Shown here: piece by piece, positions 46,327 to 63,933 of the stretch
Layout of the letters: each line of letters begins with the position of its first letter
Position numbering within the stretch: the first letter of the stretch is position 1
From: Candidatus Levyibacteriota bacterium
Lineage (GTDB): Bacteria > Patescibacteriota > Microgenomatia > Levybacterales > UBA12049
Length of the DNA: 64,000 nt
Assembly: GCA_003152105.1 (NCBI GenBank)
Contig: PLZJ01000002.1
Location: 685,140 to 749,139, forward strand
Direction: 5' to 3'
The notes under the pieces: generated by a model
Told to the model about the DNA's origin: nothing
Database searches by the model: none
What the model saw: the letters and a program-made list of their open reading frames with translations, nothing else
Program-made: the position numbers and the translations under genes

Positions 46327-47035
46327 CTTTAATTTGCTTATCTGTTTTGTTTCCAGCTTGATCAGTGGATTCGATAGTAATATGAGTGTCTCCGCCGTTT
46401 TGTAAGGTAAGTATATAATTATAGTTGCCGTTCTCATCAATAGTTGCTTGATATCCGTTTACTGTTACCGTTGTATTTGGATCAGTAGTACCTTTAATAG
46501 TAATTGGATTTTGATCTTTTGAAAATGTTGAACCATCAGTTGGACTTGAGATGGTTAAGTTAGGAGGTTTGTTTAAGTAAGAAATCGATATTGTATTTGA
46601 ATTATTACTATCATTTAAATTTTTTTCCGCTTTTGCACTAAATTGGTTATTTCCTTGGGTAAGTGAGATATTCGTAAAAGTAAAACTTCCGTCAGTATTT
46701 GTACTTATATTTGTTACAAAATTGTTATTATTGTAGAGTTTTATTGTTTCTCCATTACTTGCGTTACCAGTAATAGTAATAGTATTGTTTTTTGTCGCGT
46801 TTGGAAGAGAATTTAAAGTCGGAGGAGCTATATAAGTTGGGGCAGTCGATTTGCTATTTGTAGAGAATGACGAATTTTGGCTTGAAGAAAATGAGCTAAT
46901 ACCTAGAATTAATGGAATACCAAACTTTACAACTATAATGACAACTATAATTATACCAATTATTGTAAAAATAATGTAGCGTTTGGTTTGATTTTCTAGC
47001 TTTTTTTCTAAACGTGACTCGTATCTTCTGTTCAT
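46310..47035 (-). CDS. Membrane-anchored surface protein with tandem Ig-like (Big) domains
   Basis: N-terminal TM IIFTIIGIIIVVIIVV, S/T/N-rich linker, then two beta-rich repeats (TITITGNASNGETIKLY... and ITIKGTTDPNTTVTVNGYQATIDENGNY...TDQAGN). Confidence 0.55.
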   Translation of the reverse strand: MNRRYESRLEKKLENQTKRYIIFTIIGIIIVVIIVVKFGIPLILGISSFSSSQNSSFSTNSKSTAPTYIAPPTLNSLPNATKNNTITITGNASNGETIKLYNNNNFVTNISTNTDGSFTFTNISLTQGNNQFSAKAEKNLNDSNNSNTISISYLNKPPNLTISSPTDGSTFSKDQNPITIKGTTDPNTTVTVNGYQATIDENGNYNYILTLQNGGDTHITIESTDQAGNKTDKQIKVTYNP

Positions 47036-47163: not shown

Positions 47164-47571
47164 TTATTTGGGTTTATAATGTCTTGCAACTTTCAACTCT
47201 GCAATTGCACGTACAAATTCTTTTTCAATTTCAGCATAATCTATATCTCCAACCTTCTCACTCATAAGTTTTTCAGCACGTTTTTTTGCTTCTTCAGCTT
47301 TGGTTATATTAATATCTTGTGCGTGAATTGCATAATCTGCGAGAATGGTGAGTTGGTTATTGCTAACTTCTATAAAACCTCCTGTTACCGCTAAGTGCTG
47401 CGATTGCCCTTTTGTTTTAATTTCAAGTTCTCCTGGAACTAATTTAGAAAGGAGAGGAGTGTGTTCCGGTAAAACTCCTATAATACCTTCTTCTGTTGGA
47501 ATAATCACTTCATCTACCTCACCTTGGTAAATTACTTGTGATGGAGTGATGATGGATAAATGTAGTTTCAT
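47164..47571 (-). CDS. atpC: ATP synthase F1 epsilon subunit
   Basis: LSIITPSQVIYQGEVDEVIIPTEEGIIGVLPEHTPLL; operon position after beta. Confidence 0.85.
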   Translation of the reverse strand: MKLHLSIITPSQVIYQGEVDEVIIPTEEGIIGVLPEHTPLLSKLVPGELEIKTKGQSQHLAVTGGFIEVSNNQLTILADYAIHAQDINITKAEEAKKRAEKLMSEKVGDIDYAEIEKEFVRAIAELKVARHYKPK

Positions 47572-47574
47572 AGC

Positions 47575-49861
<2,287 letters not shown>

Positions 49862-49870
49862 ACGTATACG

Positions 49871-51403
49871 TTAATCTTTAAATCCTTTTTTAAATTCTTT
49901 GCTTGCTTTGTCTAACTCTTTTTTAGTATCTTCGTTAATTTTATTTCCTTCAGCGAGTGTCTTTGCAATTGATTTATAATTTTTATCAATAAAACGAATA
50001 AATTCATGAATAAATCTCACACAATTTTCAACTTTAACATCGTCTAGATAGCCCTTTGTTACAGCCCAAATACTTAGTACTTCATTATTTTCTGCTAATG
50101 GTTGATATTGCGCTTGCTTGAGTATTTCCGTAGTTCTCTGACCCCTATCAAGAAGTTTTTTAGTTGCATTATCAAGTTCACTACCAAATTGCGAAAATGC
50201 AGCCAATTCTCTATACTGCGCTAAATCTAATTTCATGCTACCAGCAACTGATTTCATTGTTCCAGTCTGCGCAGCTCCTCCGACTCTTGATACTGATATA
50301 CCAACGTTTATAGCTGGTCTAATACCTGAATTAAATAAATCAGCTTCTAAAAAGATTTGTCCATCAGTAATAGATATAACATTAGTTGGAATATAAGCTG
50401 ATACATCTCCTGCTTGTGTTTCAATGATTGGTAGAGCCGTGATAGAACCACTTCCGTTTTTCTTGTTTAACCTAACAGCTCTTTCTAAAAGTCTACTGTG
50501 TAAATAAAATACGTCTCCAGGATAAGCTTCTCGGCCCGCAGGTCTTTTTAAAACCAATGTTAGCTGTCTATATGCCCACGCGTGTTTAGTTAAATCATCA
50601 TATACAATTAACACATCTTCACCTTTTTCCATAAAATATTCAGCGATTGCAACTCCTGAATATGGTGCTAAATACTGAAGTGCTGCAGGATCAGAAGCAC
50701 TTGCTATAACGACTATTGAATATTTAATTGCTTCCGTTTCCTTTAATTTGTTTATTACTTGAGCTACCGATGTTAATTTTTGACCAATTGCGACATAAAT
50801 ACATATTACTTGCTTTAAGTTTCTTTCTTGTTTTTTTTGATTTAGGATCGTATCGATTGCGATTGCAGTTTTTCCAAGACCTCTATCTCCAATAATAAGT
50901 TCTCTTTGTCCTCTTCCAATAGGAAACATTGCATCTATTGAAGTAATACCGGTTTTTAATGGTGTATCGACTCCTTGTCTATCCACAACTCCAGCTGCAA
51001 TTTTTTCCAAAGGCATGTCTTTGCCTTTTTTAATTGATGTCTTCCCATCAAGGGGTAGTCCAAGAGGATTGACAATTCTACCCAATAATTCTTCCGAAAC
51101 TTTTATGCTTAAGATTTTTCCTGTTCTTTTTGCAATTTGCCCTTCAACGATTGATGATCCAGGACCAAGCAGTACAACTGATACATAATCTTCATCCAGT
51201 CCAAGTACTAATCCGTTTATATTTCCTTCAAATTCTATTATTTCTCCTATTTCTGCTTTTGATAACCCTGAAATGGTAATAACGCCGTCAGTATTTTTTT
51301 CTACTTTTCCAATATTTTGTACTTTGGGATCAGATGAAAATGTCTGAAGGTTTTTTTCTAATTCTTTAATAATTTCGTTATCGTTAATCATAGCTTTGTT
51401 CAA
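49871..51403 (-). CDS. atpA: ATP synthase F1 alpha subunit
   Basis: Walker A GDRGLGKTAIAIDTILNQ; 510 aa. Confidence 0.95.
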   Translation of the reverse strand: MNKAMINDNEIIKELEKNLQTFSSDPKVQNIGKVEKNTDGVITISGLSKAEIGEIIEFEGNINGLVLGLDEDYVSVVLLGPGSSIVEGQIAKRTGKILSIKVSEELLGRIVNPLGLPLDGKTSIKKGKDMPLEKIAAGVVDRQGVDTPLKTGITSIDAMFPIGRGQRELIIGDRGLGKTAIAIDTILNQKKQERNLKQVICIYVAIGQKLTSVAQVINKLKETEAIKYSIVVIASASDPAALQYLAPYSGVAIAEYFMEKGEDVLIVYDDLTKHAWAYRQLTLVLKRPAGREAYPGDVFYLHSRLLERAVRLNKKNGSGSITALPIIETQAGDVSAYIPTNVISITDGQIFLEADLFNSGIRPAINVGISVSRVGGAAQTGTMKSVAGSMKLDLAQYRELAAFSQFGSELDNATKKLLDRGQRTTEILKQAQYQPLAENNEVLSIWAVTKGYLDDVKVENCVRFIHEFIRFIDKNYKSIAKTLAEGNKINEDTKKELDKASKEFKKGFKD

Positions 51404-51740
51404 TATAGGTTATTATCTTTTGTATTCTATCACGTAAACTGACTTCATATAATAAATCGCCTACAGTAATTCGAATTCCAGGGTTTATTGATGGATTTAT
51501 ATCATAAAGTACTTTTTTATTTGGAAAAAGCGAGTGAATATTATCGCTGAAATTAGTGTCTGGCTTACTTGGTAGTGTAACATACACATTATTTGCATTT
51601 TCATTTAAACGCAATGCTTTAATAAACTGCTTTAATTCACTTCGTTTAAGTTGTCCTGCTATTAATGATGTTTTATTTCTATCAAGAACAGCATTTGAGT
51701 AACTTTGAGACAATAATTTTTGTAATTGTTTTTTTGTCAT
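51384..51740 (-). CDS. atpH: ATP synthase delta (OSCP) subunit, unusually short
   Basis: C-terminal INPSINPGIRITVGDLLYEVSLRDRIQKI matches the delta C-terminal signature. Only 118 aa (usually about 175); positioned between b and alpha. Confidence 0.65.
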   Translation of the reverse strand: MTKKQLQKLLSQSYSNAVLDRNKTSLIAGQLKRSELKQFIKALRLNENANNVYVTLPSKPDTNFSDNIHSLFPNKKVLYDINPSINPGIRITVGDLLYEVSLRDRIQKIITYIEQSYD

Positions 51741-51743
51741 ATA

Positions 51744-52250
51744 TTAATTATATTCTGATTTAAATTTTTTAAGCGCAATGCTAACTAGGTTCTTTTGCAT
51801 TTTATCATCAAACAAATCATTAGTAGATTTTTCTAAAAAGTCTTGCATTACGGAGCTAAGTTTTAAAAATAATTTCTTTTCAACTGTTTTACGCTCAAGT
51901 TCTATTAATGCTTTAGCTTCATCAAGTTCTATGCTTGCTTGTTTTTTTGCCTGTGCTTGAGAATTTTGAATGATTTCAAAAGCTTCATTTTTAGCATCAC
52001 TTATTATTTTTTGTGCTTTTTTATTTGCTTCTTTTAAAATCTCATCTTCATTCTCTTTTGCTTTTTCTAGTAGTTTTTTGCTTTCTTCAGCTTGTATTAA
52101 ACCTTGAATAATCGCATCCTTGCGTTTTTGAAGCATGTTAAAAACAGGCTTATATAAGAACCGCTTTAATAAATAGAGTACTATTAAAAAATTAACGATT
52201 TCCGCTACTAAAAGATATAAATTTATTCCAAATGTTTGAAAAATACTCAT
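51744..52250 (-). CDS. atpF: ATP synthase Fo subunit b
   Basis: N-terminal TM plus a long charged coiled-coil; operon position. Confidence 0.8.
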   Translation of the reverse strand: MSIFQTFGINLYLLVAEIVNFLIVLYLLKRFLYKPVFNMLQKRKDAIIQGLIQAEESKKLLEKAKENEDEILKEANKKAQKIISDAKNEAFEIIQNSQAQAKKQASIELDEAKALIELERKTVEKKLFLKLSSVMQDFLEKSTNDLFDDKMQKNLVSIALKKFKSEYN

Positions 52251-52314
52251 ATGTTTTTACCACAGTTATAAATTGTTTTTAAGGTAGAAAAAGAATAATA
52301 TCTTTGTACCTATT

Positions 52315-52524
<210 letters not shown>

Positions 52525-53256
52525 TTACGCTTCACCTCCTTCATGTTGTGGTGTAATCAGAATTGACATAAACGCCATTGTAAGCATACCAAATACTGCA
52601 GCTTGCACAAGACCTACAAATGACTCATACAGCATCAATGGCACAGGAAGGATAAAAGCAAATACAGATGTCAATTGTGATAATAGTACTTCTCCCGCAT
52701 AAATATTTCCAAATAATCGAAAAGAAAAAGAAATAATTTTTGTAAATTCTGAAATAAGCTCCAAAAGTCCAATTGGCAACATGTAGGGATTATTAAAAGT
52801 TATAAATCGAGAAATATATTCCTTAAATCCTAAAGATCTGTAGCTCATTATATGAGTTGCGGCAAGAGAAATCAGAGCCAGTGCTGCGGTTACATTAAGA
52901 TCTGTAGATGCACTGCGAAGTAGAGGAATAAACCCTTTCTTTGTATAAAAGCCTATCGCTCCTATTCCAGGGAGTAATCCACTGTAGTTTGAAACGAGAA
53001 TAAAGAGCGTAAATGTAATAACCCATGGATAAATCTTCTTGGCATTTTCACCCGCTAATGTTTCTGTAAGTCCATACACATATTCTGTAATAACTTCAAA
53101 AATATTTTGAAAAGTTCCCGGAATTAAGGTTAGATGTTTGTAAATAAATAAAGTGGATAGTAATAAAAAAAAATCTACGAAAAGCGTGTCAATGAATGTG
53201 TTTGTTATTGGAAATTTAAATAAAGTTAGAACCGGTTCTGATGCTATTGGAATCAT
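52525..53256 (-). CDS. atpB: ATP synthase Fo subunit a
   Basis: RLFGNIYAGEVLL conserved Arg helix; 243 aa, 5-6 TM. Confidence 0.9.
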   Translation of the reverse strand: MIPIASEPVLTLFKFPITNTFIDTLFVDFFLLLSTLFIYKHLTLIPGTFQNIFEVITEYVYGLTETLAGENAKKIYPWVITFTLFILVSNYSGLLPGIGAIGFYTKKGFIPLLRSASTDLNVTAALALISLAATHIMSYRSLGFKEYISRFITFNNPYMLPIGLLELISEFTKIISFSFRLFGNIYAGEVLLSQLTSVFAFILPVPLMLYESFVGLVQAAVFGMLTMAFMSILITPQHEGGEA

Positions 53257-53295
53257 AAAAAGAACCTTTAAACAAGGTTCTGCTTAATTATAAAA

Positions 53296-56200
53296 TTAAT
53301 TTTTAGGTAAGTCAAGAAGTGTACGATCGATTGGAATTATCTTTTCAACGATAATTGCAGGTCTGTCATTTTTTGCATCAATAAATCCTTCAATTAAAAC
53401 GACCTTATCTTCAAATATATGTTGACGATATTCTGCATAAATTTTAGGAAATACAATACATTCTATGCTTGCTCCAGTTTGATCGGTAATTGTAATAAAT
53501 GCCATTTCTGCATTGGATTTTTTTGTGTATATTTTCTTGGCAGATTCGATAATGCCTCCAACTCTTACTTTGCTTTTTTCTTTTTCATCTTCTATTAATG
53601 AAAGTTCATGGGTTATGTGAATTTTTAAATATTCGAGCACATCGCTATGGGGATGAGACGTTAAATATATGCCCAAAAATTCTTTTTCAAAAGCTAGTTT
53701 TTCGATTTGTGTAAAATCCTCAACATCAGAAGATGCAGTTTTCATCTGCATATCATCAAGGGAATCTCCAAAGAGTGATTTTTGTTTCTCTTCTTTTTTC
53801 TTCTTACCAATTTGATTAACTATTTCCGGATAAATTAGTAATAATTTTGCACGATTTCCAAATTTATCTAAAGCGCCAGCTTTTATAAGGCTTTCCATTG
53901 TTTTTTTGTTAACCGTGCCTAAGTCAATCCGCTTACAAAAATCTTCTAAAGTAGAAAATGTTTTTTCTTTGCGCGCCGAGAGTATATTTGTTATTGCAGC
54001 AGTGCCCACATTTTTAATTGCGGATAGACCAAATCTAATCTTAGTATCATCTTCTATAATAAATTCTTCATCTGATTTATTTATATCTGGTGGTAACACT
54101 TCAATTCCTAGTCTCTTGCATTCTAGTACTCCCTGAGATATTTTTTCATTTTTAGTAGGTCCAGTTGTAGCTCTGGATTCTGCGGTTAGTAAAGCAGTCA
54201 TAAATTCAACGGAATAATGTGCTTTTAAATATGCAGTACGAAATGCAATTGTTGCATAACAGGCTGCATGTGCTTTATTAAATCCATATCCTGCAAATGG
54301 CGCAATGAGCTCAAAAAGCTCTTCTGCTTTTTTTTGAGATAACCCTTTTTTAACAGCTCCTGAAATAAATTGTTCTTGTTGTTTTTTCATCTCAGAAGGG
54401 ATTTTCTTTCCCATAGCTTTCCTAAATTTATCAGCTTCTAGCCAATCATAGCCTGCGATTTCAATTGTAGTAAGTAGAACATCATCTTGATATGTTAAAA
54501 TCCCATATGAGTTTTCTAAAATATCTTTTAGTCTTGGGTCAGGATAGGTAATAAGTGATGGATTATGTTTTCTATTAATAAAATCTGGTATATTTTGCAT
54601 TGGACCTGGTCTATATAGAGAAACCATTGCCATTAAATCAAATATGGTAGTTGGTTTTAGGTCTTTTATATATCTTCTCATGCCTGAAGATTCTAGCTGA
54701 AAAATACCAGTAGTCTCAGCTTTGGAAAGTAATTCGTATGTATCTTTATCATCAAGTGGAACGGTTGAAAAATCAATATCTATATTTTTTGTAATTTTAA
54801 TAAATCGTAAACTCTCTTCAATAATTGTTAAGTTTCGAAGACCCAAAAAGTCCATTTTTAATAGCCCTACACCGTCTTCGCCAACCGTGTACATGTCATA
54901 TTGTGTAACAATTTTATCGCCGTTAGATTCTTTTTGAAGAGGAACATATTCTGTTAATGGTTTATCAGCAATTACTACTCCTGCAGCATGTGTGGAGGCA
55001 TGTCTCGCAACGCCTTCTAATTTTTTAGCTACATCAATTAGTCTTTTTGTTTCAGGTTCTGTTGTGTAAGCTCTATGAAGATCCGGACTCTGTTTTAATG
55101 CTGAATCCAATGTCATTGCATGTCCTTGCCAACCAGGAGGAATCATTTTTGATATTCTGTCAGGAGCAGAATAGGGCATTCCAAGTGCTCTTCCGGCATC
55201 TCGAACAGCTCCTCGTGCTTCCATAGTTCCAAAAGTAATGATTTGCGCTACTTTGTCTAAGCCATATTTATCAGTAACATAGCGAATTACATCATCTCGT
55301 CTCGTATCTGCAAAATCTAAGTCAATATCAGGAGCTGAAGGACGTAATGGATTTAAAAATCTCTCAAATGGTAGTGAGAAATAAAATGGGTCAATATCTG
55401 TGATTCGCAGGGCATAAGAAACTACAGATCCCGCAGCAGAACCTCGTCCAGGACCAACGGAAATACCATTATCTTTGGCCCAATTAACAAAATCTGCAAC
55501 CACTAAAAAATAAGTCTCGTACCCTTTACTCAGAATTATCGATAACTCATAGTCAACTCTTTTTTCTATTTCAGAAGTTATCGTTCCATACCTTCTTTTT
55601 AATCCCTTATTTACGAGATCTTTTAAATATTCAGAAGTTTTTTTATTATTTGGTACATCATATTTTGGAATTATCCACTTTCCAAGAGTAATTTCAAGAT
55701 TACACTGATCAGAAATAAATGAAGAGTTAGTAACCGCGTCCGGTATATCTAAAAATAATTGTTCCATTTCTTCCCCTGATTTGATATAGAAATCGGGAGA
55801 ATCAATCATTGATAGTTTTCTATTTGGCGTATCAATTGTTGTTTGCGTTTGAATACAAAGTAATATTTCTTGCGCTTCAGCATCTTCTTTGAATGTATAA
55901 TGATTATCGTTAGTTGCTACTAAAGGAATTCCAAGTTTTTTAGATAAGGAAATTAATTTTTTATTAACCTTTTCTTGAATAGGAATATTTAGGTGTCTTT
56001 GAATCTCAAGATATAAATTTTCATTCCCATAAATTTCCAAAAGTTTAAGAGCCCTTTTTTCAGCCTCTTCATCTCTGTCTTCCGTTATGGGTGAGGAAAC
56101 ATATCCGTTAACACAAGCTGTTAAACATATTAATCCTTCATTATGTTTTGAAAGAAGTTCTAGATCTACCCGTGGTTTATAGTAAAAACCTTCTAGATTA

Positions 56201-56526
56201 GCAGTTGAGACTATTTTTATTAAATTTTTATAGCCAGTGGTATTTTTTGCAAGTAAAATTAAGTGATTGTAATCATTATCAATTCCCGCTTCTTTATCAA
56301 GTAATCTTCTTTTTGCTACGTAAATTTCGCAACCAATGATTGGTTTTATGCCTGCTGCTAAACATGCACTATAAAAACGTATTGTTCCATACATATTTCC
56401 ATGATCAGTTATTGCCAAAGATTTCATACCTAGTTCCTTGGCGCGCTTTACCATAGGTTCTATTTTTGATAAACCGTCTAATAACGAATATTCGCTATGA
56501 TTATGGAGATGTACAAAGCTATTCAT
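53296..56526 (-). CDS. dnaE: DNA polymerase III alpha subunit
   Basis: PHP domain FVHLHNHSEYSLLDG; LITDHGNMYG; polymerase core; 1076 aa. Confidence 0.95.
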   Translation of the reverse strand: MNSFVHLHNHSEYSLLDGLSKIEPMVKRAKELGMKSLAITDHGNMYGTIRFYSACLAAGIKPIIGCEIYVAKRRLLDKEAGIDNDYNHLILLAKNTTGYKNLIKIVSTANLEGFYYKPRVDLELLSKHNEGLICLTACVNGYVSSPITEDRDEEAEKRALKLLEIYGNENLYLEIQRHLNIPIQEKVNKKLISLSKKLGIPLVATNDNHYTFKEDAEAQEILLCIQTQTTIDTPNRKLSMIDSPDFYIKSGEEMEQLFLDIPDAVTNSSFISDQCNLEITLGKWIIPKYDVPNNKKTSEYLKDLVNKGLKRRYGTITSEIEKRVDYELSIILSKGYETYFLVVADFVNWAKDNGISVGPGRGSAAGSVVSYALRITDIDPFYFSLPFERFLNPLRPSAPDIDLDFADTRRDDVIRYVTDKYGLDKVAQIITFGTMEARGAVRDAGRALGMPYSAPDRISKMIPPGWQGHAMTLDSALKQSPDLHRAYTTEPETKRLIDVAKKLEGVARHASTHAAGVVIADKPLTEYVPLQKESNGDKIVTQYDMYTVGEDGVGLLKMDFLGLRNLTIIEESLRFIKITKNIDIDFSTVPLDDKDTYELLSKAETTGIFQLESSGMRRYIKDLKPTTIFDLMAMVSLYRPGPMQNIPDFINRKHNPSLITYPDPRLKDILENSYGILTYQDDVLLTTIEIAGYDWLEADKFRKAMGKKIPSEMKKQQEQFISGAVKKGLSQKKAEELFELIAPFAGYGFNKAHAACYATIAFRTAYLKAHYSVEFMTALLTAESRATTGPTKNEKISQGVLECKRLGIEVLPPDINKSDEEFIIEDDTKIRFGLSAIKNVGTAAITNILSARKEKTFSTLEDFCKRIDLGTVNKKTMESLIKAGALDKFGNRAKLLLIYPEIVNQIGKKKKEEKQKSLFGDSLDDMQMKTASSDVEDFTQIEKLAFEKEFLGIYLTSHPHSDVLEYLKIHITHELSLIEDEKEKSKVRVGGIIESAKKIYTKKSNAEMAFITITDQTGASIECIVFPKIYAEYRQHIFEDKVVLIEGFIDAKNDRPAIIVEKIIPIDRTLLDLPKN

Positions 56527-56529
56527 AAG

Positions 56530-57309
56530 TTACGCTGCTTTAGAAAGTGTTCGGTATGATATTGCATTTTGGTCATTTCGTTCAGCGATTATATTTGATC
56601 CACGATTTTCTTTTGCAACTGATAAGGCTAGCCCAGCTTGAGCAATTAAATCTTCTGCAGATTGTGTGCCATCGTATTTTGCAAATCCAAAAGTTAAGCT
56701 AATTTTTCTTGTTGCATCTTTTGTGTAAGTGGGAAGTACTGATGCTTTTGCAAATAATTCACTACTCATATCACCAATATTTTTTTGATGTCTGTTTGTT
56801 AATTCAAGTAATGACGCTTCATTTAATGTATGTGGATCACCTTCAATAACCTGAATAAATTCGTCTCCACCGTCATTCTTTCGAGCTAACAAGTCTCCAG
56901 GCCTTACTGGTAAATGGGCCATAAGCTTGATTGCTTGATCTCCGCCTTCATGAGGACCAAATGCACTATTAAAATCTTTAAAATTATTAATGTCCATAAA
57001 TAACACGTATAAATTAGGAGCACTTCTTCTATCGCCTTTTTCTATATCTAATTCTTGTCTATTAATTGTTTGAATTCTCGATTTTAGGTCTTGTAATAGT
57101 TGTCTTCCATTTGGTAAACCTGTTAACGCATCAATATTAGATAAGCCTTTATATTCATCTCTTTCTGCAATAAGTGATTTCTGCTTTTCTTCTGCCTCTC
57201 TTCTTTGAAGATGATTTTTTACAGTACCTAACGCATCATGAAGAAATGTTTTTCTTACTTGTTCGTATGGAATGCTAACTTCTGATTCAGGAACAGATTT
57301 TTCTGACAT
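56530..57309 (-). CDS. GGDEF-domain protein (putative diguanylate cyclase) with N-terminal coiled coil
   Basis: DALTGLPNGRQLL ... FMDINNFKDFNSAFGPHEGGDQAIKLMA ... ARKNDGGDEFIQV carries the GGDEF A-site and surrounding conserved positions. Confidence 0.65.
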   Translation of the reverse strand: MSEKSVPESEVSIPYEQVRKTFLHDALGTVKNHLQRREAEEKQKSLIAERDEYKGLSNIDALTGLPNGRQLLQDLKSRIQTINRQELDIEKGDRRSAPNLYVLFMDINNFKDFNSAFGPHEGGDQAIKLMAHLPVRPGDLLARKNDGGDEFIQVIEGDPHTLNEASLLELTNRHQKNIGDMSSELFAKASVLPTYTKDATRKISLTFGFAKYDGTQSAEDLIAQAGLALSVAKENRGSNIIAERNDQNAISYRTLSKAA

Positions 57310-57310
57310 A

Positions 57311-58633
57311 TTAGTTGTTATTTAAATATTTTTCAAGGTTTTCTTTTACAAGTTTCGGATCAATTTTCTCATCATACAATCGCAGTACCTGTCCTAGTAA
57401 ATACATAATAACATTAGTTTTACCATTCTTATAATCATTGATGGCGTTTTTATTCTCTTGTAGTACTTTTTCAATAACACTAGTAAGTTTCTGTTCGTCT
57501 ATAGTATTACTTTTTGAAGAAGATAGAATGGTTTTTATAATTTCTGAAGGAACAGATTTTTCAATATCTGGTTTTTTGTTAATAATATAATTTGCAATTT
57601 GTTTTGGTGTAACTGAAAAAGATTTTCCATCTAAAACCGCTTTATCAAAAAAATCTGCGGTATTTTTGTCTCTTGTAAGAATTTCAATATCGTAACTTGA
57701 TAAGTCATACGAACTCTTAAACCTTTTTGCCTTAATGTTAGGAAGTTCAGGTATAAATTTAGTTAATTTTTCAATTATCTCATTCGTAAGTTGAATTGGT
57801 GGTATATCTGGTTCAGGAAAATATCTATAGTCATTTGCTTCTTCTTTTACTCTTTGGAGGATAGTTTCATTTTTTGTTTCATTCCATCCTCTTGTTTCTT
57901 GAGGTGGAGTTATTCCATCGGATAATAAAATTTCTTGTCGTTTAATTTCAAAATTTATTGCTTTTTCAACAAATTTAAATGAATTAATATTTTTAACTTC
58001 CACTTTATAAGGTGGCAGCACACCCTTTTTTACTGTCAGTGATATATTTGGTTCAAGTCTCATTTCGCCACGTTCCATGTTTGCATCTGAAACTTCCAAA
58101 TAGCGAACTATTTGTTGTAATGCTTGCAAATATTCCTTTACTTCTTCCGCATTCTCAAAATCCGGTTCTGTAACTATTTCAACAAGTGGAACTCCTGATC
58201 GGTTAAAATCAATTAAACTCACAGATTCTCCATTAATTTTTTCATGCATTAATTTGCCTGTATCTTCTTCCATATGCACTCTTCTAATTCGAATTTTCTT
58301 ACCATTTTGAAGTATTAGGTAGCCATTTTTAGCAAAGGGCATATCGTACTGAGAAATTTGATATCCTTTTGCCAGATCTGGATAAAAATAATTTTTACGG
58401 TCAAATTTTGAATGTAGCGCTATTTTTCCGTTTAATGCTATGCCGATTAGTATGCACCATTCAATAGCTTTTTTATTAGGTACTGGAAGGCCACCAGGCA
58501 TGCCTAGACATACCGCACATGTTTGTGAGTTAGGAGCTTTACCAAAATACTGCGTTGAACATCCGCAAAACATTTTGCTTTTTGTTTTTAACTCAACGTG
58601 CACCTCTAAGCCAATAACAGGTAAATATTTCAT
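57311..58633 (-). CDS. gatB: Asp/Glu-tRNA(Asn/Gln) amidotransferase subunit B
   Basis: MKYLPVIGLEVHVELKTKSKMFCGCS canonical GatB N-terminus. Confidence 0.9.
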   Translation of the reverse strand: MKYLPVIGLEVHVELKTKSKMFCGCSTQYFGKAPNSQTCAVCLGMPGGLPVPNKKAIEWCILIGIALNGKIALHSKFDRKNYFYPDLAKGYQISQYDMPFAKNGYLILQNGKKIRIRRVHMEEDTGKLMHEKINGESVSLIDFNRSGVPLVEIVTEPDFENAEEVKEYLQALQQIVRYLEVSDANMERGEMRLEPNISLTVKKGVLPPYKVEVKNINSFKFVEKAINFEIKRQEILLSDGITPPQETRGWNETKNETILQRVKEEANDYRYFPEPDIPPIQLTNEIIEKLTKFIPELPNIKAKRFKSSYDLSSYDIEILTRDKNTADFFDKAVLDGKSFSVTPKQIANYIINKKPDIEKSVPSEIIKTILSSSKSNTIDEQKLTSVIEKVLQENKNAINDYKNGKTNVIMYLLGQVLRLYDEKIDPKLVKENLEKYLNNN

Positions 58634-60030
58634 AGTTTCGCTTGTTGTTTGTGAAACAACGTGTTTTGTTCAAAAAGGTGTGCTAGTTGTAAAACTACTT
58701 CTTCTTTGAATTGTGGGCCAATTATTTGCATGCCAATTGGTAGTCCTAAACTCGTAAAGCCACAAGTTACATTTATTCCTGAAAGTCCTGCAATAGATGA
58801 GGGTTCAACTAGTACATCTGCTAATTCTCCAAACATCGAGTTCTCTTTAGTAGCACCTAAAGGAAGAGCTGCAGTTGGTGCAGTAGGGGCTACTATAGCG
58901 TCTACTTCTGAAAATGCTTTGTTAAAATCGTTAATAATTTCAGTTCGTACTTTAACTGCTTTATTGTAATATGCATCATAATAGCCGCTCGAAAGTGTAA
59001 AAGTACCAAGCATTATCCTTCTTTTTGCTTCTTCGCCAAACATATCTCTGCCATTGCCATATCGTATTCCATCATATCTTGCTAAATTTGAAGAGACTTC
59101 TGCTCGTTGAATAATAGTATAATCTGAAATCGCATATTTAGGATCAAATAATTTTATTTTTTTTATAAGCATACCCTTTTTTTCAAATTCCTCAATTGCT
59201 TTATAAACCGCATTTGCAACTTGACTATCTACACTGTTAAAGTAGTCTTCAGAAACTCCAATAGTCATTTTCTTCTTATTTTGTAAATTGTTTGCATAGT
59301 CAGGAACCAAAAGGGGTGAGCTTGTTGCATCTTTTGGGTCATGTCCAGCAATTACTTTAAGTACTAGTGCGGCATCTTTAACAGTTTTAGTAAGTGGTCC
59401 TGGACTATCTAATGAAGAAGCCATTGCTACAACTCCAAATCTGCTTACTCTGCCATATGTTGGCTTTAGTCCAACAACTCCACACCAAGAAGCAGGCTGT
59501 CTAATCGATCCTGCAGTTTCACTACCAATGGCAAATATAGCCTGATTTGCCGCAATACTTGCCGCAGAGCCTCCAGATGAACCTCCAGGTAAATAACCCA
59601 CATTCCATGGATTTTTTGTAGGCCCAAAATCAGATGTTTCTGTTGATGAGCCATGAGCCCATGCATCTAAATTTGTTTTGCCAATTAAAATTGCACCTGC
59701 GTCTTCTAATTTTTGCACAACCGTTGCATTATACGGTGGTATAAAGTTAGCAAGCACATTTGACGATGCAGTTGTTCTTATGTTTTGTGTTGAAAAATTA
59801 TCTTTTAATACATACGGTATTCCAAGAAGAGGAAGGTCGATTCCTTTGCTTCTTTTAACATCAGATTTTTCAGCATTTTCAATTGCCTGCTCTTTTATAA
59901 GAGTAATAACTGCATTAAGCTTACTATCAGTGTTTTGAATGCGAGAGATACATGCATTTGTTAATTCAACTGATGAGAAAGATTTATTTTTTAAATTTTC
60001 AATGGCTTCTGTCAGTGTTAATGTATTCAT
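58630..60030 (-). CDS. gatA: Asp/Glu-tRNA amidotransferase subunit A (amidase family)
   Basis: Amidase signature GGSSGGSAASIAA; 466 aa. Confidence 0.9.
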   Translation of the reverse strand: MNTLTLTEAIENLKNKSFSSVELTNACISRIQNTDSKLNAVITLIKEQAIENAEKSDVKRSKGIDLPLLGIPYVLKDNFSTQNIRTTASSNVLANFIPPYNATVVQKLEDAGAILIGKTNLDAWAHGSSTETSDFGPTKNPWNVGYLPGGSSGGSAASIAANQAIFAIGSETAGSIRQPASWCGVVGLKPTYGRVSRFGVVAMASSLDSPGPLTKTVKDAALVLKVIAGHDPKDATSSPLLVPDYANNLQNKKKMTIGVSEDYFNSVDSQVANAVYKAIEEFEKKGMLIKKIKLFDPKYAISDYTIIQRAEVSSNLARYDGIRYGNGRDMFGEEAKRRIMLGTFTLSSGYYDAYYNKAVKVRTEIINDFNKAFSEVDAIVAPTAPTAALPLGATKENSMFGELADVLVEPSSIAGLSGINVTCGFTSLGLPIGMQIIGPQFKEEVVLQLAHLFEQNTLFHKQQAKL

Positions 60031-60032
60031 AA

Positions 60033-60317
60033 TTATTCGTTTTCTAATATACCTTTAACTTTAAAAAATCCTTTGTAGCTGTCTTTTGCGTTTAGTAAAG
60101 CCTCCTCTTGTGTAAAAGAAGAGGTAACAATATCATCTCTGACAACATTTTTAAGTCCAGTAACTTGATCTGTGTTAGGTGTGTTTTCAGTATTAATATC
60201 TTTTAGGATATTAATATATGTGAGTGTTTTGGTAAGTTGTGAAGAAAGAAGTTCTAGCTCATTCTTATCAATGTGTAAATTGGCGAGTTTTGCTATGTGT
60301 GATACATTAAATTTCAT
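60033..60317 (-). CDS. gatC: Asp/Glu-tRNA amidotransferase subunit C
   Basis: 94 aa; VSHIAKLANLHIDKNE...; immediately upstream of gatA. Confidence 0.8.
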   Translation of the reverse strand: MKFNVSHIAKLANLHIDKNELELLSSQLTKTLTYINILKDINTENTPNTDQVTGLKNVVRDDIVTSSFTQEEALLNAKDSYKGFFKVKGILENE

Positions 60318-60355
60318 CTATTACTTGAAATAACTGGGATTTCGTTATGCAGTAA

Positions 60356-61117
60356 TTATAACGCAGTACCAAGCTTATTAGCAATTGCTTTTTGTGCTTT
60401 ACTTTCTAAGAAATCATCTAGCTCATCCAGAGTAATTTTTTTATTGTATTTAACTTCTAACGCTTTTTTTAGTAAAAAATCTGCAATTTTAGGATTTTTA
60501 GGAAGTAACGGTCCATGAAAGTAACAGCCAATTGCATTTTTGTATATCATTCCCTCTGTTTTATCATGTCCATTGTTTCCAAATCCTTTGATTACTTTTG
60601 CAAAAGGAAGAGTAGAGTCTTTAAGATAAGATCTGCCTCCGTGATTTTCAAAACCTACTACTAATTCATTTTTTAATTCTGGAATTTGTATTTTACCTAT
60701 TATATTACCGATTAGTCTATGGTTTTCATTTTCAGGATGTATTGTGTCAACATTAAAAATACCAAGACCTTTAATTCTTTTTCCAACTGCAGGTTCATAA
60801 AAATTGCCCATCAACTGTGGAGATCCACATACAAAAAGTGAGGGGATATTTTTTTCAATAAGATTCTTAATAGTAGTACCTTTTTTGTCGCGTAAATCAG
60901 AAATCAGGATTTCTTGTTCTTTATCTTGTGCTCCACCACCAAAAAGAAGATCAATTTTATTTATACTTGAAAGCGGTGTTGTAAACGAAATTGGAAGAAT
61001 TTTGACTTCAATTCCGCGCCACTGTGCTCTTTTTTGCAAAACAAGTATATTGCCTCGATCGCCATATGTGCTCATTAATTCAGGGTATAACCAGCCTATT
61101 GTGATGTTATATTTCAT
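60356..61117 (-). CDS. gatD: Lipid II isoglutaminyl synthase, glutamine amidotransferase subunit GatD (CobB/CobQ-like GATase)
   Basis: STYGDRGNILVLQKRAQWRGIEV and LFGGGAQDKEQ parallel S. aureus GatD. 253 aa. 4 nt overlap with the upstream murT. Confidence 0.7.
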   Translation of the reverse strand: MKYNITIGWLYPELMSTYGDRGNILVLQKRAQWRGIEVKILPISFTTPLSSINKIDLLFGGGAQDKEQEILISDLRDKKGTTIKNLIEKNIPSLFVCGSPQLMGNFYEPAVGKRIKGLGIFNVDTIHPENENHRLIGNIIGKIQIPELKNELVVGFENHGGRSYLKDSTLPFAKVIKGFGNNGHDKTEGMIYKNAIGCYFHGPLLPKNPKIADFLLKKALEVKYNKKITLDELDDFLESKAQKAIANKLGTAL

Positions 61118-62394
61118 AATATTTTTTTGCCAAGAATTATTTTTCTAATTTCTAGCATTGCAGTGTATGTAGGGAGTATGTATAGAGTTTCATTATCTGG
61201 TAATGATTTTAAAACTTCTGTTAGCTCGATTTCTATATTTTGTACTATCGTAACATCTTTAATTCCTTCATATTTAATACGAAGAGCCATATCATATACT
61301 CTGTCACCTGACACATAAATATGAGGGCACGTATTAAGCAAAGAAAGATCTGTATCCCAAATCCATGATATATCTCTGCCATCTGGAATTCTATCATTTA
61401 AACAAAATAAAATATGTTTTGCGTTTAGTTTTTGAATAGTTTGCAAGGATTGATTAAAGCTTGTTGGATTTTTTGATAAAAATATCTGAACTTTTTTATT
61501 GCCAATTTGTATTATTTCTTGTCTTCCAAAAGCGGGTTTAAATGATTTTAGTCCGTTTTCAATATTCTCATTTGGGATGCCAATGGATTTTGCGGTAAGT
61601 TCTGATGCGAGAATATTGTACTCATTGTAAGTTCCCGGTAGTGGATAAAAAATCGCATTAGTTAGATCTACCTTTGGTCTTTTAAAACTACAGTGTTTAC
61701 AGTAATATTTTCCCAAATGCGAAAAATAAGTTACAGAGTAAGTTAACTTGTGAAAACATTTAGGGCAAAATAGAGAATCTGATGAAAAACTATCAGAAGG
61801 TAAAGATTCTGCTTTGTCTAAACCAAAATATTTTACTACATGATTACTGTTACTACCAAGATAGGCAATTTGTGGATCGTCTCCATTACAAATTAAAATA
61901 ACCTCTTGAGGAAGTGATGATACTGTTTTTTTCCATTTTTCAATTATCGTTCGAACCTCTCCATATCTATCTAACTGATCTCTAAATAAATTAAGTAAGA
62001 CTATGTAGGAAGGTGTTATTTCTTTTACAATTAATGGAAATATGTTTTCATCTATTTCAAATAATGCAAAGTCAGCAGTAATTTTGCCATTTACGTTAGC
62101 ATTTGAAATCAGAGCTGAAGCAATTCCGTTCATTAGGTTGGCACCAGAGGTGTTTTGTATTACGGTAAAATTGTTTTTTTTGAGTATTGTTTTTAGCAGT
62201 TTACTTGTTGTGGTTTTGCCGTTAGTTCCAATAATAAATATGACTTTTGTTTTAGAAAAAGCAAGTTCTGAAGAAATAAAATGAGGCTGTAGAAAAAGCA
62301 TCAAATGTCCAGGCCATGTAGAGCCATTACCTAAATTAAGTGTTCTTATGCTCCTGCTTATTATTTTTAATAGAAAGATGAGAAGTACGTTCAT
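61114..62394 (-). CDS. murT: Lipid II isoglutaminyl synthase, Mur-ligase-like subunit MurT
   Basis: Mur ligase P-loop IIGTNGKTTTSKLL; Cys4 ribbon CPKCFHKL...CKHCSF; C-terminal DUF1727-like region; 426 aa. Confidence 0.7.
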   Translation of the reverse strand: MNVLLIFLLKIISRSIRTLNLGNGSTWPGHLMLFLQPHFISSELAFSKTKVIFIIGTNGKTTTSKLLKTILKKNNFTVIQNTSGANLMNGIASALISNANVNGKITADFALFEIDENIFPLIVKEITPSYIVLLNLFRDQLDRYGEVRTIIEKWKKTVSSLPQEVILICNGDDPQIAYLGSNSNHVVKYFGLDKAESLPSDSFSSDSLFCPKCFHKLTYSVTYFSHLGKYYCKHCSFKRPKVDLTNAIFYPLPGTYNEYNILASELTAKSIGIPNENIENGLKSFKPAFGRQEIIQIGNKKVQIFLSKNPTSFNQSLQTIQKLNAKHILFCLNDRIPDGRDISWIWDTDLSLLNTCPHIYVSGDRVYDMALRIKYEGIKDVTIVQNIEIELTEVLKSLPDNETLYILPTYTAMLEIRKIILGKKIL

Positions 62395-62445
62395 AATTTT
62401 GTAAAGAATATGCAGTAATTGTATTATTGCATATATAATTTTAAC

Positions 62446-63345
62446 CTACATGGAGCGTAAAATTTTAATTCTTTCTTCAATTGGTGGATGTGTATCAAAT
62501 AAAGATGAAAACCAGACTGATGCGCTTTTACCTTTAAATGGATTAACAATAAATAAATGAGCGGTTGCGTTTGATGCTGAATTTAATGGTCTAGTATCAC
62601 TGGAAATTTTCTCTAGCGCACTCGCTAAGCCTTCTGGATATCTTGTTAGTAGTGCTCCTGAGGCATCTGCTAAAAATTCTCTTTTTCTAGATATTGCCAG
62701 TTGAATAATAGTTGCAATAATAGGAGAAAGTATGGCAAATAAAATGCCCAGTACTAAAAAAACAGTGCCTAAACTATTGTTTCTATCATCGTTTTCTCGA
62801 ATATTTCCAAACCATAAATTATTCATAAATAAATTAGCAATTAAGGCTACAAATCCGACTAGTATGGCTACAATTCCCATAAGTCTGGTGTCATAGTTTT
62901 TAACATGAGATAATTCGTGGGCAATTACTCCTTCTAGCTCTACTTTATCTAGTTTTTGTAGAATTCCAGATGTTAAACAAACGACTGCATGACTCGGATC
63001 GCGTCCAGTAGCAAAGGCATTAGGTGATAAATCATCGATCATATAAATCTTAGGTTTCGGAAGTCCATCACCAATGCAAAGGTTTTCAACTAAATGATAT
63101 ATCTGTGGATTATCTTTTTCATCAATTAATTTTGCACCTGAAGTGGCAAGAACTATTTTATCAGAGTAGTAATAACTACCAATAGACATTACTCCGCTTA
63201 GAATTAGTCCAATTGCTACGTAACCTACGACATTACCTGTTGCTTTTCCAAACACAAATAAAATGGTAGTAATAAATACCACAAAAAGCACCATTATTAG
63301 TATGGTTTTCCACTTATTTTGAGAAATATTCGAATAAATATTCAT
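62446..63345 (-). CDS. htpX: Zinc metalloprotease HtpX (M48 family)
   Basis: HELSHVKNYD HExxH in a 4-TM scaffold; 299 aa. Confidence 0.85.
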   Translation of the reverse strand: MNIYSNISQNKWKTILIMVLFVVFITTILFVFGKATGNVVGYVAIGLILSGVMSIGSYYYSDKIVLATSGAKLIDEKDNPQIYHLVENLCIGDGLPKPKIYMIDDLSPNAFATGRDPSHAVVCLTSGILQKLDKVELEGVIAHELSHVKNYDTRLMGIVAILVGFVALIANLFMNNLWFGNIRENDDRNNSLGTVFLVLGILFAILSPIIATIIQLAISRKREFLADASGALLTRYPEGLASALEKISSDTRPLNSASNATAHLFIVNPFKGKSASVWFSSLFDTHPPIEERIKILRSM

Positions 63346-63384
63346 ACAAAAAATGCTTATAAACTATATGCACACAGAACGTAG

Positions 63385-63933
63385 TTAGAATTTAACAGCT
63401 ATTTCCTTTTTTTCAGAATCTGTAGCTGCAAAAAATTCCATTGGTACAAAATGAAGCATATTTGCAATAACAACATTTGGAAATACTTTAATTTTTGTGT
63501 TGTAATTCATTACGTTACTGTTATAAAACTGTCTTGCGTAGGCAATTTTATTTTCAGTGTCTTCTAATTCATCCTGTAGCTGTTTAAAGTTTTCATTTGC
63601 CTTTAGCGTTGGGTAGTTTTCAGCAACGGCAAATAAGCTTTTTAATGTTTGTGTCATTTGATTATTTGCTTGTGCTTTATCTTCAATTCCTTTTGCAGAA
63701 AGCATATTAGCGCGAGCTTTTGTAACATCCTCAAAAATTGCTTTTTCGTGTTTAGCATATCCTTTTACCGTTTCAACTAAGTTAGGTATCAAGTCAGCTC
63801 TTCTTTTAAGTTGAACATCTATCTGGGAAAATGCTTCAGAAATTCTTACTTTTGCAGTAACTAATCCATTATAGGTAACCCATAAATAGATAACTGCTAC
63901 CGCTAAAATACCAAGTAAAATATACATTGTCAT
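63385..63933 (-). CDS. lemA: LemA family protein
   Basis: N-terminal TM then [41 protein letters not shown], LemA signature. Paired with htpX, as is common. Confidence 0.8.

Follow-up and report, generated by a model that had tools for sequence, protein, structure and literature searches.

The window analysed here is a 64-kb stretch of a 1.14-Mb scaffold from an uncultivated CPR/Patescibacteria (Levybacteria-like) bacterium, in which murT, gatD, gatC, gatA and gatB follow one another on the minus strand. The genes and the sites between and ahead of them are the following:

62409-62433, minus strand: imperfect palindrome TATGCAATAATA-C-AATTACTGCATA, lying in the 51-nt spacer between htpX and murT
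61114-62394, minus strand: murT, 426 aa, predicted ATP-dependent ligase subunit (Mur-ligase-like) of lipid II isoglutaminyl synthase
61114-61117, minus strand: overlapping ATGA in which murT ends and gatD begins, read from the sequence
60356-61117, minus strand: gatD, 253 aa, CobB/CobQ-type (GATase_3) glutaminase subunit
60318-60355, minus strand: gatD-gatC spacer of 38 nt, holding the end of a promoter-like site and then the 12-mer AATTACTGCATA
60033-60317, minus strand: gatC, tRNA-dependent amidotransferase subunit (TIGR00135, 61.7 bits, cutoff 47.1)
58630-60030, minus strand: gatA, amidase-family glutaminase subunit of GatCAB (TIGR00132, 511.1 bits, cutoff 481.1)
57311-58633, minus strand: gatB, 440 aa (NF004012, 532.8 bits, cutoff 338)

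The coordinates of murT and gatD in the earlier note on this DNA matched the list of open reading frames exactly, and the same-strand spacers from murT to gatB measured −4, 38, 2 and −4 nt. GatC, GatA and GatB each scored above the curated equivalog cutoff, GatB being short, with the Pfam profile GatB_Yqey matched at positions 78-148 of 148, so that the match covers the YqeY tail in its C-terminal half only. GatC is a neighbour of the MurT/GatD enzyme and not a part of it.

Regarding the product of murT, two Pfam domains were found, the Mur ligase middle domain (PF08245, Mur_ligase_M, 56.3 bits, cutoff 24) followed by MurT_C, formerly DUF1727 (PF08353, 110.8 bits, cutoff 25), the latter matched over positions 1-110 of 110. 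The N-terminus is shorter than in MurC-F, and the P-loop G56-T-N-G-K60-T61, the Mg-binding E113 (S. aureus E108) and N260 are all present; a truncated N-terminus, a GTNGKT loop near residues 55-61 and a Mg-binding Glu have been described for MurT (PMC6113224). The Lys and Thr of the P-loop and the Mg-binding Glu were unvarying in 82 of 82 sequences, as was D341, the equivalent of S. aureus D349 and the third member of the inter-subunit triad, which stands in the segment PDGRDISWIWD (D-G-x-D-x-S-W context). The position of the DNAAD motif is occupied by D334-R-I-P-D338. Moreover, the Cys4 ribbon announced in the earlier note was located as C210-x2-C213-x18-C232-x2-C235, inserted in the middle domain, where the AF2 model forms beta-hairpins with a block-mean pLDDT of 85-94, and the tetrad (CCCC) appeared in all 18 CPR sequences. 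Such a Cys4 zinc ribbon is a trait of most MurT members, not of all, and metal binding is a prediction here.

The best-scoring NCBIfam models for MurT were NF045635 and NF052464, aligned over nearly their full length with 269 and 250 bits, below a cutoff of 800 bits that is an annotation threshold and not a biological feature; they exceeded all other models by more than 170 bits, the runner-up family being pMurC (94 bits). Full-length matches with MurT chains of the PDB (9sq9, 7q8e, 6gs2 and 6fqb) had E-values from 1e-60 to 1e-63. Furthermore, when the AF2 model (pLDDT 84.9) was searched with Foldseek, the first 13 PDB matches were all MurT chains, with E-values from 4e-33 to 4e-26 and TM-scores of at most 0.77.

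The product of gatD consists of a stand-alone GATase_3 domain (PF07685, 108.9 bits, cutoff 27) spanning residues 6-208 of 253, membership in GatD having been judged by a stand-alone domain of this kind in a protein of about 240-260 aa. Its nucleophile C97 corresponds to S. aureus C94 and H201 to H189, while P203 (P191 in S. aureus) takes the place of the usual triad Glu, in the context FHGPLLPKN, which fits the GatD pattern HGP(I/L)LPKN. Likewise, R134 and G60 correspond to S. aureus R128 and G59, which reportedly, according to the paper on the S. aureus GatD structure, have a role in glutamine binding. The Cys was found in 68 of 68 sequences and the His in 67 of them, and both R134 and G60 were unvarying (68/68). 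The best NCBIfam models were again those of the family, NF045636 (200.6 bits, cutoff 400) and NF052463 (187.3 bits, cutoff 450), in near-full-length alignments, and the E-values against GatD chains of the PDB (9sq9_C, 6fqb_E and 5n9m) ranged from 1e-42 to 1e-48. For both proteins, the similarity to solved chains is genuine homology and far from anything that chance would give. Since both MurT and GatD lie below the NCBIfam equivalog cutoffs, the curated rules would not assign their names automatically. The S. aureus residues that have been tested catalytically are C94 and H189 of GatD and D349, T60, E108 and N267 of MurT, the D349N mutant of the latter being inactive (PMC6113224). All their equivalents are present here, and they are kept in 67-68 of the 68 GatD and 81-82 of the 82 MurT orthologues.

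At the junction of the two genes, which reads ...AAAATATTATGAAATAT..., the stop codon TGA of murT and the start codon ATG of gatD run into each other, and the claimed overlap of 4 nt was read directly as ATGA, an arrangement compatible with translational coupling. The same spacing of −4 was found in four CPR relatives, and in most of the others the genes lie within a few nucleotides of each other. In addition, the pairing of murT with gatD was kept in 17 of 17 CPR loci and in 35 of 36 other, non-cyanobacterial loci. The identity of the pair put forward in the earlier note was therefore borne out by gene structure, domains, catalytic residues, matches with solved structures, fold and conserved pairing, and its suggested alignment with the S. 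aureus enzyme recovered both the catalytic Cys and His of GatD and the DUF1727 domain of MurT.

The products of murT and gatD very probably (a probability of roughly 0.9) make up the two-subunit lipid II isoglutaminyl synthase of this Levybacteria-like member of CPR/Patescibacteria. Both substrate and reaction are inferred by homology with the enzymes of S. aureus and S. pneumoniae: GatD would hydrolyse glutamine via a Cys97-His201 dyad that Asp341 of MurT would complete across the subunit interface, and the ammonia freed would turn activated D-iGlu into D-iGln. The ATGA overlap may favour coupled, equimolar synthesis of this presumed obligate heterodimer. The window also encodes RodA/FtsW, a SEDS protein that uses lipid II, and LCP and LysM genes lie on the same scaffold, just outside the window. 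The term 'Gram-positive trait', used in the earlier note for the predicted amidation, turned out to be too narrow, as MurT/GatD is a Terrabacteria trait that is common in Cyanobacteria too, and the host belongs to the CPR/Patescibacteria, which have been described as monoderm Terrabacteria, a group in which murT-gatD is known.

The adjacency of gatCAB was examined next to the claim that it forms one transcription unit with murT-gatD and thus joins two glutamine-dependent amidation systems, of cell wall and tRNA, in one operon. A functionally integrated operon of this kind, in which both amidations are co-transcribed or co-regulated, for instance according to how much glutamine reaches an episymbiont that is auxotrophic for amino acids, would agree with the shared strand and short spacers of the five genes and with the lack of any terminator-like hairpin between them. 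The terminator scan of the minus strand from 56.5 to 63.9 kb gave nothing except one weak site within gatA, the first convincing hairpin with a T-tract lying after dnaE (53281-53261). Neither spacer folded better than shuffled sequence: there was no terminator in the gatD-gatC spacer (z = −0.48), and no structured RNA or terminator in the htpX-murT spacer (z = −1.16, not significant). An Rfam scan of the window returned two tRNAs only, with no riboswitch or leader near murT-gatD-gatCAB. Also in favour, 14 of 15 CPR relatives (MurT identity 42-55%), as well as locus L086, have gatCAB after murT-gatD, and the 12-mer AATTACTGCATA occurs exactly twice in the 64 kb, once in the htpX-murT and once in the gatD-gatC spacer, just upstream of murT and of gatC, each copy with TA[TC]AAT ahead of it. 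Before murT, it forms part of the palindrome, with the −10-like hexamer TACAAT just ahead.

However, the conserved co-directional block is larger and functionally mixed (PolX-LemA-HtpX-MurT-GatD-GatCAB-GGDEF-DnaE-ATP synthase), so that synteny alone does not single out MurT/GatD together with GatCAB. The gatD-gatC junction is moreover interrupted in about half of the relatives by unrelated genes spanning 0.5-2.4 kb and resembling methyltransferase, NUDIX and HAD genes, in one of them by an open reading frame on the opposite strand, and in L003 and L004 a terminator hairpin and a TATAAT stand directly ahead of gatC. In L020, gatD leads directly to dnaE and gatCAB is missing at this position, and among the 42 non-CPR loci (cyanobacterial and other) none linked gatCAB to murT-gatD. 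The 12-mer was sought in 17 CPR relatives and was not conserved, the spacers being too diverged. Within the window itself, the promoter scan found its best site of the region at 60384..60355 (minus strand), TTGCTA-18-TATAAT, with 10 of 12 matches. Because of this promoter-like site before gatC, a single transcription unit of murT-gatD-gatCAB is unproven: the part of the claim that stood is that no terminator separates the genes, while co-transcription itself did not follow, and the interrupted junctions of the relatives, some with their own terminator and TATAAT, count further against it. Transcription from murT-gatD may run through into gatCAB, which probably has a promoter of its own as well. 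Functional integration is therefore unlikely. The adjacency falls inside a long run of mixed housekeeping genes, and the two amidation systems are best seen as neighbours through lineage-specific inherited synteny. As such, the link provides a handy synteny marker for this CPR clade.

Two more speculative and mutually independent proposals, which we regard as unlikely, are that murT-gatD and gatCAB are co-regulated in Microgenomates-type CPR and that the MurT/GatD of CPR and Cyanobacteria have a recent shared origin through transfer between phyla. Under the first, the TA[TC]AAT-TACTGCATA before both units could be a common promoter or operator and, if true, co-regulation would tie cell-wall amidation and the formation of Gln- and Asn-tRNA to scavenged glutamine in an auxotrophic episymbiont. 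As for the shared origin, an affinity between CPR and Cyanobacteria was only hinted at in a neighbour-joining tree of GatD, which carries no support values and is built from loci picked by similarity to the query.

Returning to the enzyme, it might act on another acceptor and not be a strict functional equivalent of that of S. aureus, the candidates being a stem peptide with a different residue 3 and a glycopolymer other than peptidoglycan from the glycan-synthesis cluster of the window. The scores below the NCBIfam equivalog cutoffs, the nucleophile elbow CGSPQ of GatD in place of CGG[YF]Q, the proximity of that 35-kb cluster and the occurrence of MurT/GatD homologues in pseudomurein-containing archaea would all fit, and the presence of DRIPD instead of the S. 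aureus DNAAD at the proposed contact with the stem peptide means that the exact substrate (its residue 3) could differ. However, DRI[PA]D prevails in Cyanobacteria, Chloroflexota and Actinomycetota, the last of which include mycobacteria, with proven D-iGlu amidation by MurT/GatD. Every catalytic and ATP-binding residue is also conserved, and the window has a gene for a SEDS protein that works on lipid II; another acceptor is very unlikely. Finally, the alternative named in the earlier note itself, a GATase that is a fragment of CobQ/cobyric acid synthase next to a generic Mur ligase lacking DUF1727, is practically negligible: although GATase_3 is a CobB/CobQ-type domain and some PDB depositors named GatD 'cobyric acid synthase', it was refuted by the Pfam domains (MurT_C/DUF1727 matched over its full length), by the NCBIfam scores (TIGR00313 matching the GATase part only, with 36.3 bits where the cutoff is 309.9; MurC-F models at 67 bits or less) and by the fold search, where MurT chains came first with a lead of about 6-13 powers of ten in E-value.

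The murT-gatD of the window is thus an ordinary, correctly recognised MurT/GatD pair. Close homologues are already labelled lipid II isoglutaminyl synthase or MurT in database annotations, so the result is a confirmation and not a discovery. A literature search for MurT with CPR, Patescibacteria or Saccharibacteria found no paper on MurT/GatD in CPR, the co-occurrences of these terms being incidental. If the assignment is true, Levybacteria-like CPR carry amidated D-iGlu in their peptidoglycan, like Bacillota, Actinomycetota and Chloroflexota; this would lend slight further support to a Terrabacteria-type (monoderm) envelope in CPR, and it would add hosts to the known range of an enzyme under study as a target for antibiotics.

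Compared with known systems, MurC-F, the pseudomurein ligases (pMurC/E) and cyanophycin synthetase share with MurT the fold of the ATP-binding middle and C-terminal domains, but they have neither the MurT_C specificity nor the Cys4 ribbon nor a GatD partner, and they remained at 94 bits or less and at Foldseek E-values of at least 1e-20. The GATase domain of CobQ/CobB has the GATase_3 glutaminase fold in common with GatD, which differs in having no CobQ synthetase (CbiA-type) domain, in being partnered by MurT and in reaching only 36 bits with the CobQ model. The closest relatives outside CPR were found in Cyanobacteria (Nostoc, Microcystis and Fischerella; loci L017-L041), with identities of 41-45% for MurT and 46-51% for GatD. 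They share with the pair of the window the DRIPD-type motif, the CGSPQ/CGAPQ elbow and the Cys4 tetrad. Their gatD, in contrast, often lies 0.1-2 kb from murT or is absent from the downstream sequence (at least 3 kb and at most 10 kb), and gatCAB was nearby in none of these loci.

With the characterised enzymes of S. aureus, Streptococcus pneumoniae and S. pyogenes (PDB 6GS2, 6H5E, 7Q8E, 6FQB and 9SQ9), the identity amounts to about 28-32% for MurT and about 40% for GatD. The pair differs from these S. aureus-type enzymes in its DRIPD motif and CGSPQ elbow, against their DNAAD and CGG[YF]Q, in its CPR host and in its scores under the NCBIfam equivalog cutoffs. In common with them, it shows the same two-gene arrangement, a short N-terminus with the P-loop near residues 56-61, the Mur middle domain with its Cys4 ribbon followed by MurT_C, the inter-subunit Cys-His-Asp triad with HGP in place of the usual HPE, the equivalents of R128 and G59, and the fold.

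Two minus-strand open reading frames, drawn from the six-frame ORF list, were found exactly at the coordinates claimed in the earlier note, and their junction, AAAATATTATGAAATAT, contained the 4-nt overlap described there, in which the TGA stop of murT and the ATG of gatD share the sequence ATGA. These genes and the others considered were the following:

61114-62394, minus strand: murT, 426 aa
60356-61117, minus strand: gatD, 253 aa
60033-60317, minus strand: gatC, 38-nt spacer after gatD
58630-60030, minus strand: gatA, 2-nt spacer after gatC
57311-58633, minus strand: gatB, 440 aa, -4 nt spacer after gatA
56530-57309, minus strand: stand-alone GGDEF-domain protein, 259 aa, between gatB and dnaE
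46310-47035, minus strand: 241-aa protein
about 12000-46300: glycan-biosynthesis cluster, 35 kb
8602-9684, plus strand: RodA/FtsW SEDS gene, 302 bits to the rodA model
5777-8605: ileS, stop overlapped by the RodA/FtsW gene

Since ileS and the RodA/FtsW gene, which are unrelated, also overlap by 4 nt, such an overlap alone is no proof of a functional link in this genome. Compared with typical GatB, the 440-aa sequence seems to lack ~40 residues in its helical/tail region, the Pfam YqeY tail domain being matched only over positions 78-148 of 148. The GGDEF gene, flanked by spacers of 1 and 3 nt (gatB and dnaE sides) and detected in some of the relatives only (L005, L006, L015 and L086), carries an intact NDGGDEFIQ motif and may thus encode a diguanylate cyclase, here in a CPR (Patescibacteria) genome of reduced size.

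The 426-aa protein matched the Pfam domains Mur_ligase_M (56.3 bits) and, at full length, MurT_C, formerly DUF1727 (110.8 bits, cutoff 25), and the 253-aa protein matched GATase_3 (108.9 bits). The best NCBIfam models were the equivalogs of MurT (269 bits) and GatD (200.6 bits), with nearly full-length alignments, followed by pMurC (94 bits), MurE/F (≤67 bits) and CobQ (36 bits vs. a cutoff of 310). The MurT_C and CobQ scores rule out that the GATase is a piece of CobQ whose Mur-ligase partner has no DUF1727. Both proteins scored under the very high equivalog cutoffs (800 bits for MurT and 400 bits for GatD), and for this reason NCBI gives close homologues only generic names ('Mur ligase family protein' or 'MurT ligase domain-containing protein'), several being named 'lipid II isoglutaminyl synthase' by JGI. 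The best PDB matches were MurT chains for the 426-aa protein (9SQ9, 7Q8E, 6GS2 and 6FQB; E 1e-60 to 1e-63) and GatD chains for the 253-aa protein (9SQ9, 6FQB and 5N9M; E 1e-42 to 1e-48). Furthermore, a Foldseek search with an AlphaFold2 model for the MurT candidate (pLDDT 84.9, pTM 0.87) placed MurT chains in the first 13 ranks (E 4e-33 to 4e-26; TM up to 0.77), with pseudomurein ligases, cyanophycin synthetases and MurC-F at E 1e-20 or weaker.

In S. aureus, the functionally tested GatD residues are C94 and H189, P191 sitting where a triad normally has Glu; the third triad member is supplied from beyond the subunit interface by MurT D349, and the D349N mutant is inactive. The MurT ATP site comprises the GTNGKT loop (T60), E108 and N267, and the protein also has a Cys4 zinc ribbon and a DNAAD motif proposed for stem-peptide contact (PMC6113224). 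In the alignment with this enzyme, the catalytic Cys and His of the window GatD were C97 and H201, together with the aligned residues P203, R134 and G60; the aligned residues of the window MurT were K60/T61, E113, N260 and D341 (all positions verified). The claimed Cys4 ribbon was present as C210/C213/C232/C235. The catalytic and ATP-site residues were kept in 67-68 of 68 GatD and 81-82 of 82 MurT orthologues, drawn from 80 genome loci around MurT relatives that were searched with the window's neighbouring proteins. Domains, best models, PDB matches, fold and catalytic residues bear out the MurT/GatD pair, a known enzyme pair that the earlier note recognised correctly; by strong homology, it would very probably act as lipid II isoglutaminyl synthase (probability about 0.9).

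The order LemA-HtpX-MurT-GatD-GatC-GatA-GatB-(GGDEF)-DnaE recurred in the 17 CPR loci. Among the loci whose sequence runs on for 6 kb or more, gatCAB lay downstream in 14 of 15 from CPR, in none of 19 from Cyanobacteria and in none of the 23 others (Chloroflexota, Actinomycetota, Bacillota). The window has a co-directional block of >15 kb (47164-63933 and beyond), (CTP synthase/LysM)-PolX-LemA-HtpX-MurT-GatD-GatCAB-(GGDEF)-DnaE-ATP synthase, which continues on the 1.139-Mb metagenomic scaffold that contains the window (ENA ERZ28653421, WOOD18-1 scaffold_5). As on this scaffold, the block was longer in L086 (PolX upstream, ATP synthase downstream) and in L085 (CTP synthase-LysM-PolX upstream). 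The proteins of the CPR loci with the block (L001-L013, L015, L042, L044, L085 and L086) were only about 50-70% identical, and its gene order is unusually stable for unrelated functions. The adjacency of murT-gatD and gatCAB is real and kept in this CPR clade as part of a block of functionally unrelated housekeeping genes, and is best taken as lineage-specific synteny. In a Gottesmanbacteria MAG (L012, 1128-2399), the MurT match had one in-frame stop codon, which could reflect a pseudogene, a sequencing error or recoding.

The gatD-gatC junction is a soft spot of the block. Four relatives have a junction of 8-19 nt and two have one of about 90-100 nt; in nine it spans 0.5-2.4 kb and holds ORFs of unrelated kinds (methyltransferase-, NUDIX-, HAD- and TPP-enzyme-like), once, in L042, on the opposite strand. 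In L020 gatD was followed directly by dnaE. In L003 and L004, gatC comes directly after a hairpin resembling a terminator and a TATAAT box, and several relatives had TATAAT 5-10 nt 5' of the gatC ATG. In the window, terminator scanning and folding found no terminator-like structure between gatD and gatC, the first convincing hairpin appearing after dnaE (53281-53261). It is in the gatD-gatC spacer, however, that TTGCTA-18-TATAAT (60384-60355), the region's best promoter-like site, ends. The single transcription unit claimed previously is therefore unproven, yet read-through co-transcription from murT-gatD into gatCAB is plausible. As to the two amidation systems said to sit in one operon, the adjacency is block synteny with an often interrupted junction, and the comparative data give no support for functional coupling of cell-wall and tRNA amidation. 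TATAAT lay only 5-10 nt before gatC or murT start codons in L002, L003, L004, L006, L010, L012, L042 and L044, a distance that suggests leaderless or very short-leader mRNAs in CPR relatives. No Shine-Dalgarno-like sequence was visible before murT, gatD, gatC or gatA in the window.

The 12-mer AATTACTGCATA occurred exactly twice in the 64-kb window:

62409-62420, minus strand: copy 1, 14 nt before the murT ATG
60346-60357, minus strand: copy 2, 28 nt before the gatC ATG

A TA[TC]AAT hexamer lies 5' of each copy, and the murT-side copy is half of an imperfect palindrome, TATGCAATAATA-C-AATTACTGCATA. On the simplest reading, the copies may be a duplicated -10/initiation region giving two similar promoters; they may also be a shared operator. 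Conservation of the 12-mer was not found in the relatives, and the fold around it was not significant.

With regard to the organism, the GC content is ~30%, and the closest named relatives of the window MurT were Levybacteria/Levyibacteriota, Gottesmanbacteria, Microgenomates and 'Patescibacteria group' MAGs (42-58% identity). The glycan cluster, which probably serves to build a cell-surface glycopolymer or to glycosylate proteins, encodes GT2 and GT4 glycosyltransferases and PMT_2/YfhO/DUF6541-type membrane glycosyltransferases. It also holds a Wzy_C polymerase, a Polysacc_synt flippase, methyltransferases, UDP-glucose dehydrogenase and epimerases, besides several large ORFs without a Pfam match. 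The 241-aa protein, whose gene adjoins tRNA-Thr and the ATP synthase operon, gave weak matches to PamR, a protein of the CPR pilus system (at 34 bits, well short of the cutoff), and to an adhesin repeat of the Ca2+-stabilised type. LCP-family and LysM proteins are encoded just beyond the window and, together with RodA/FtsW and the glycan cluster, are consistent with a peptidoglycan-bearing monoderm cell; Patescibacteria have been described as monoderm members of the Terrabacteria (PMC11665869). The 'Gram-positive trait' of the earlier note is too narrow, since the published range of murT-gatD lies in the Terrabacteria: Actinobacteria, Chloroflexi, many Firmicutes and some classes of Cyanobacteria (PMC6085368, PMC11915815). 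No paper on MurT/GatD in CPR was found in the literature searched, so that a known enzyme pair is here recognised in a lineage where that literature does not discuss it.

Compared with the known enzymes, the window MurT has D334-R-I-P-D338 where S. aureus has DNAAD, DRI[PA]D being the usual form outside Bacillota in the MurT orthologue alignment. The nucleophile elbow of the window GatD (residues 96-101) is CGSPQ, as in cyanobacterial GatDs and two CPR relatives (loci L002, L032 and L017-L041), whereas it is CGG[YF]Q in Bacillota, Chloroflexota and Actinomycetota; most CPR have CGAYQ or CGGFQ. DRIPD was likewise common to cyanobacterial and CPR MurTs, and cyanobacterial GatDs grouped with CPR sequences in a rough neighbour-joining tree, a grouping that is only a hint because the tree had no support values and its sampling was biased towards the query's relatives. 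These sequence likenesses hint at a common origin or a transfer of the pair between CPR and Cyanobacteria. In the cyanobacterial loci (L014-L041, L055, L069), gatD was often apart from murT, with gaps of 0.1-2 kb in 14 loci, and it was not found in eight whose downstream sequence ran to 3 kb or more (10 kb at most). This loose spacing contrasts with the tight murT-gatD pairing of CPR and most other phyla.
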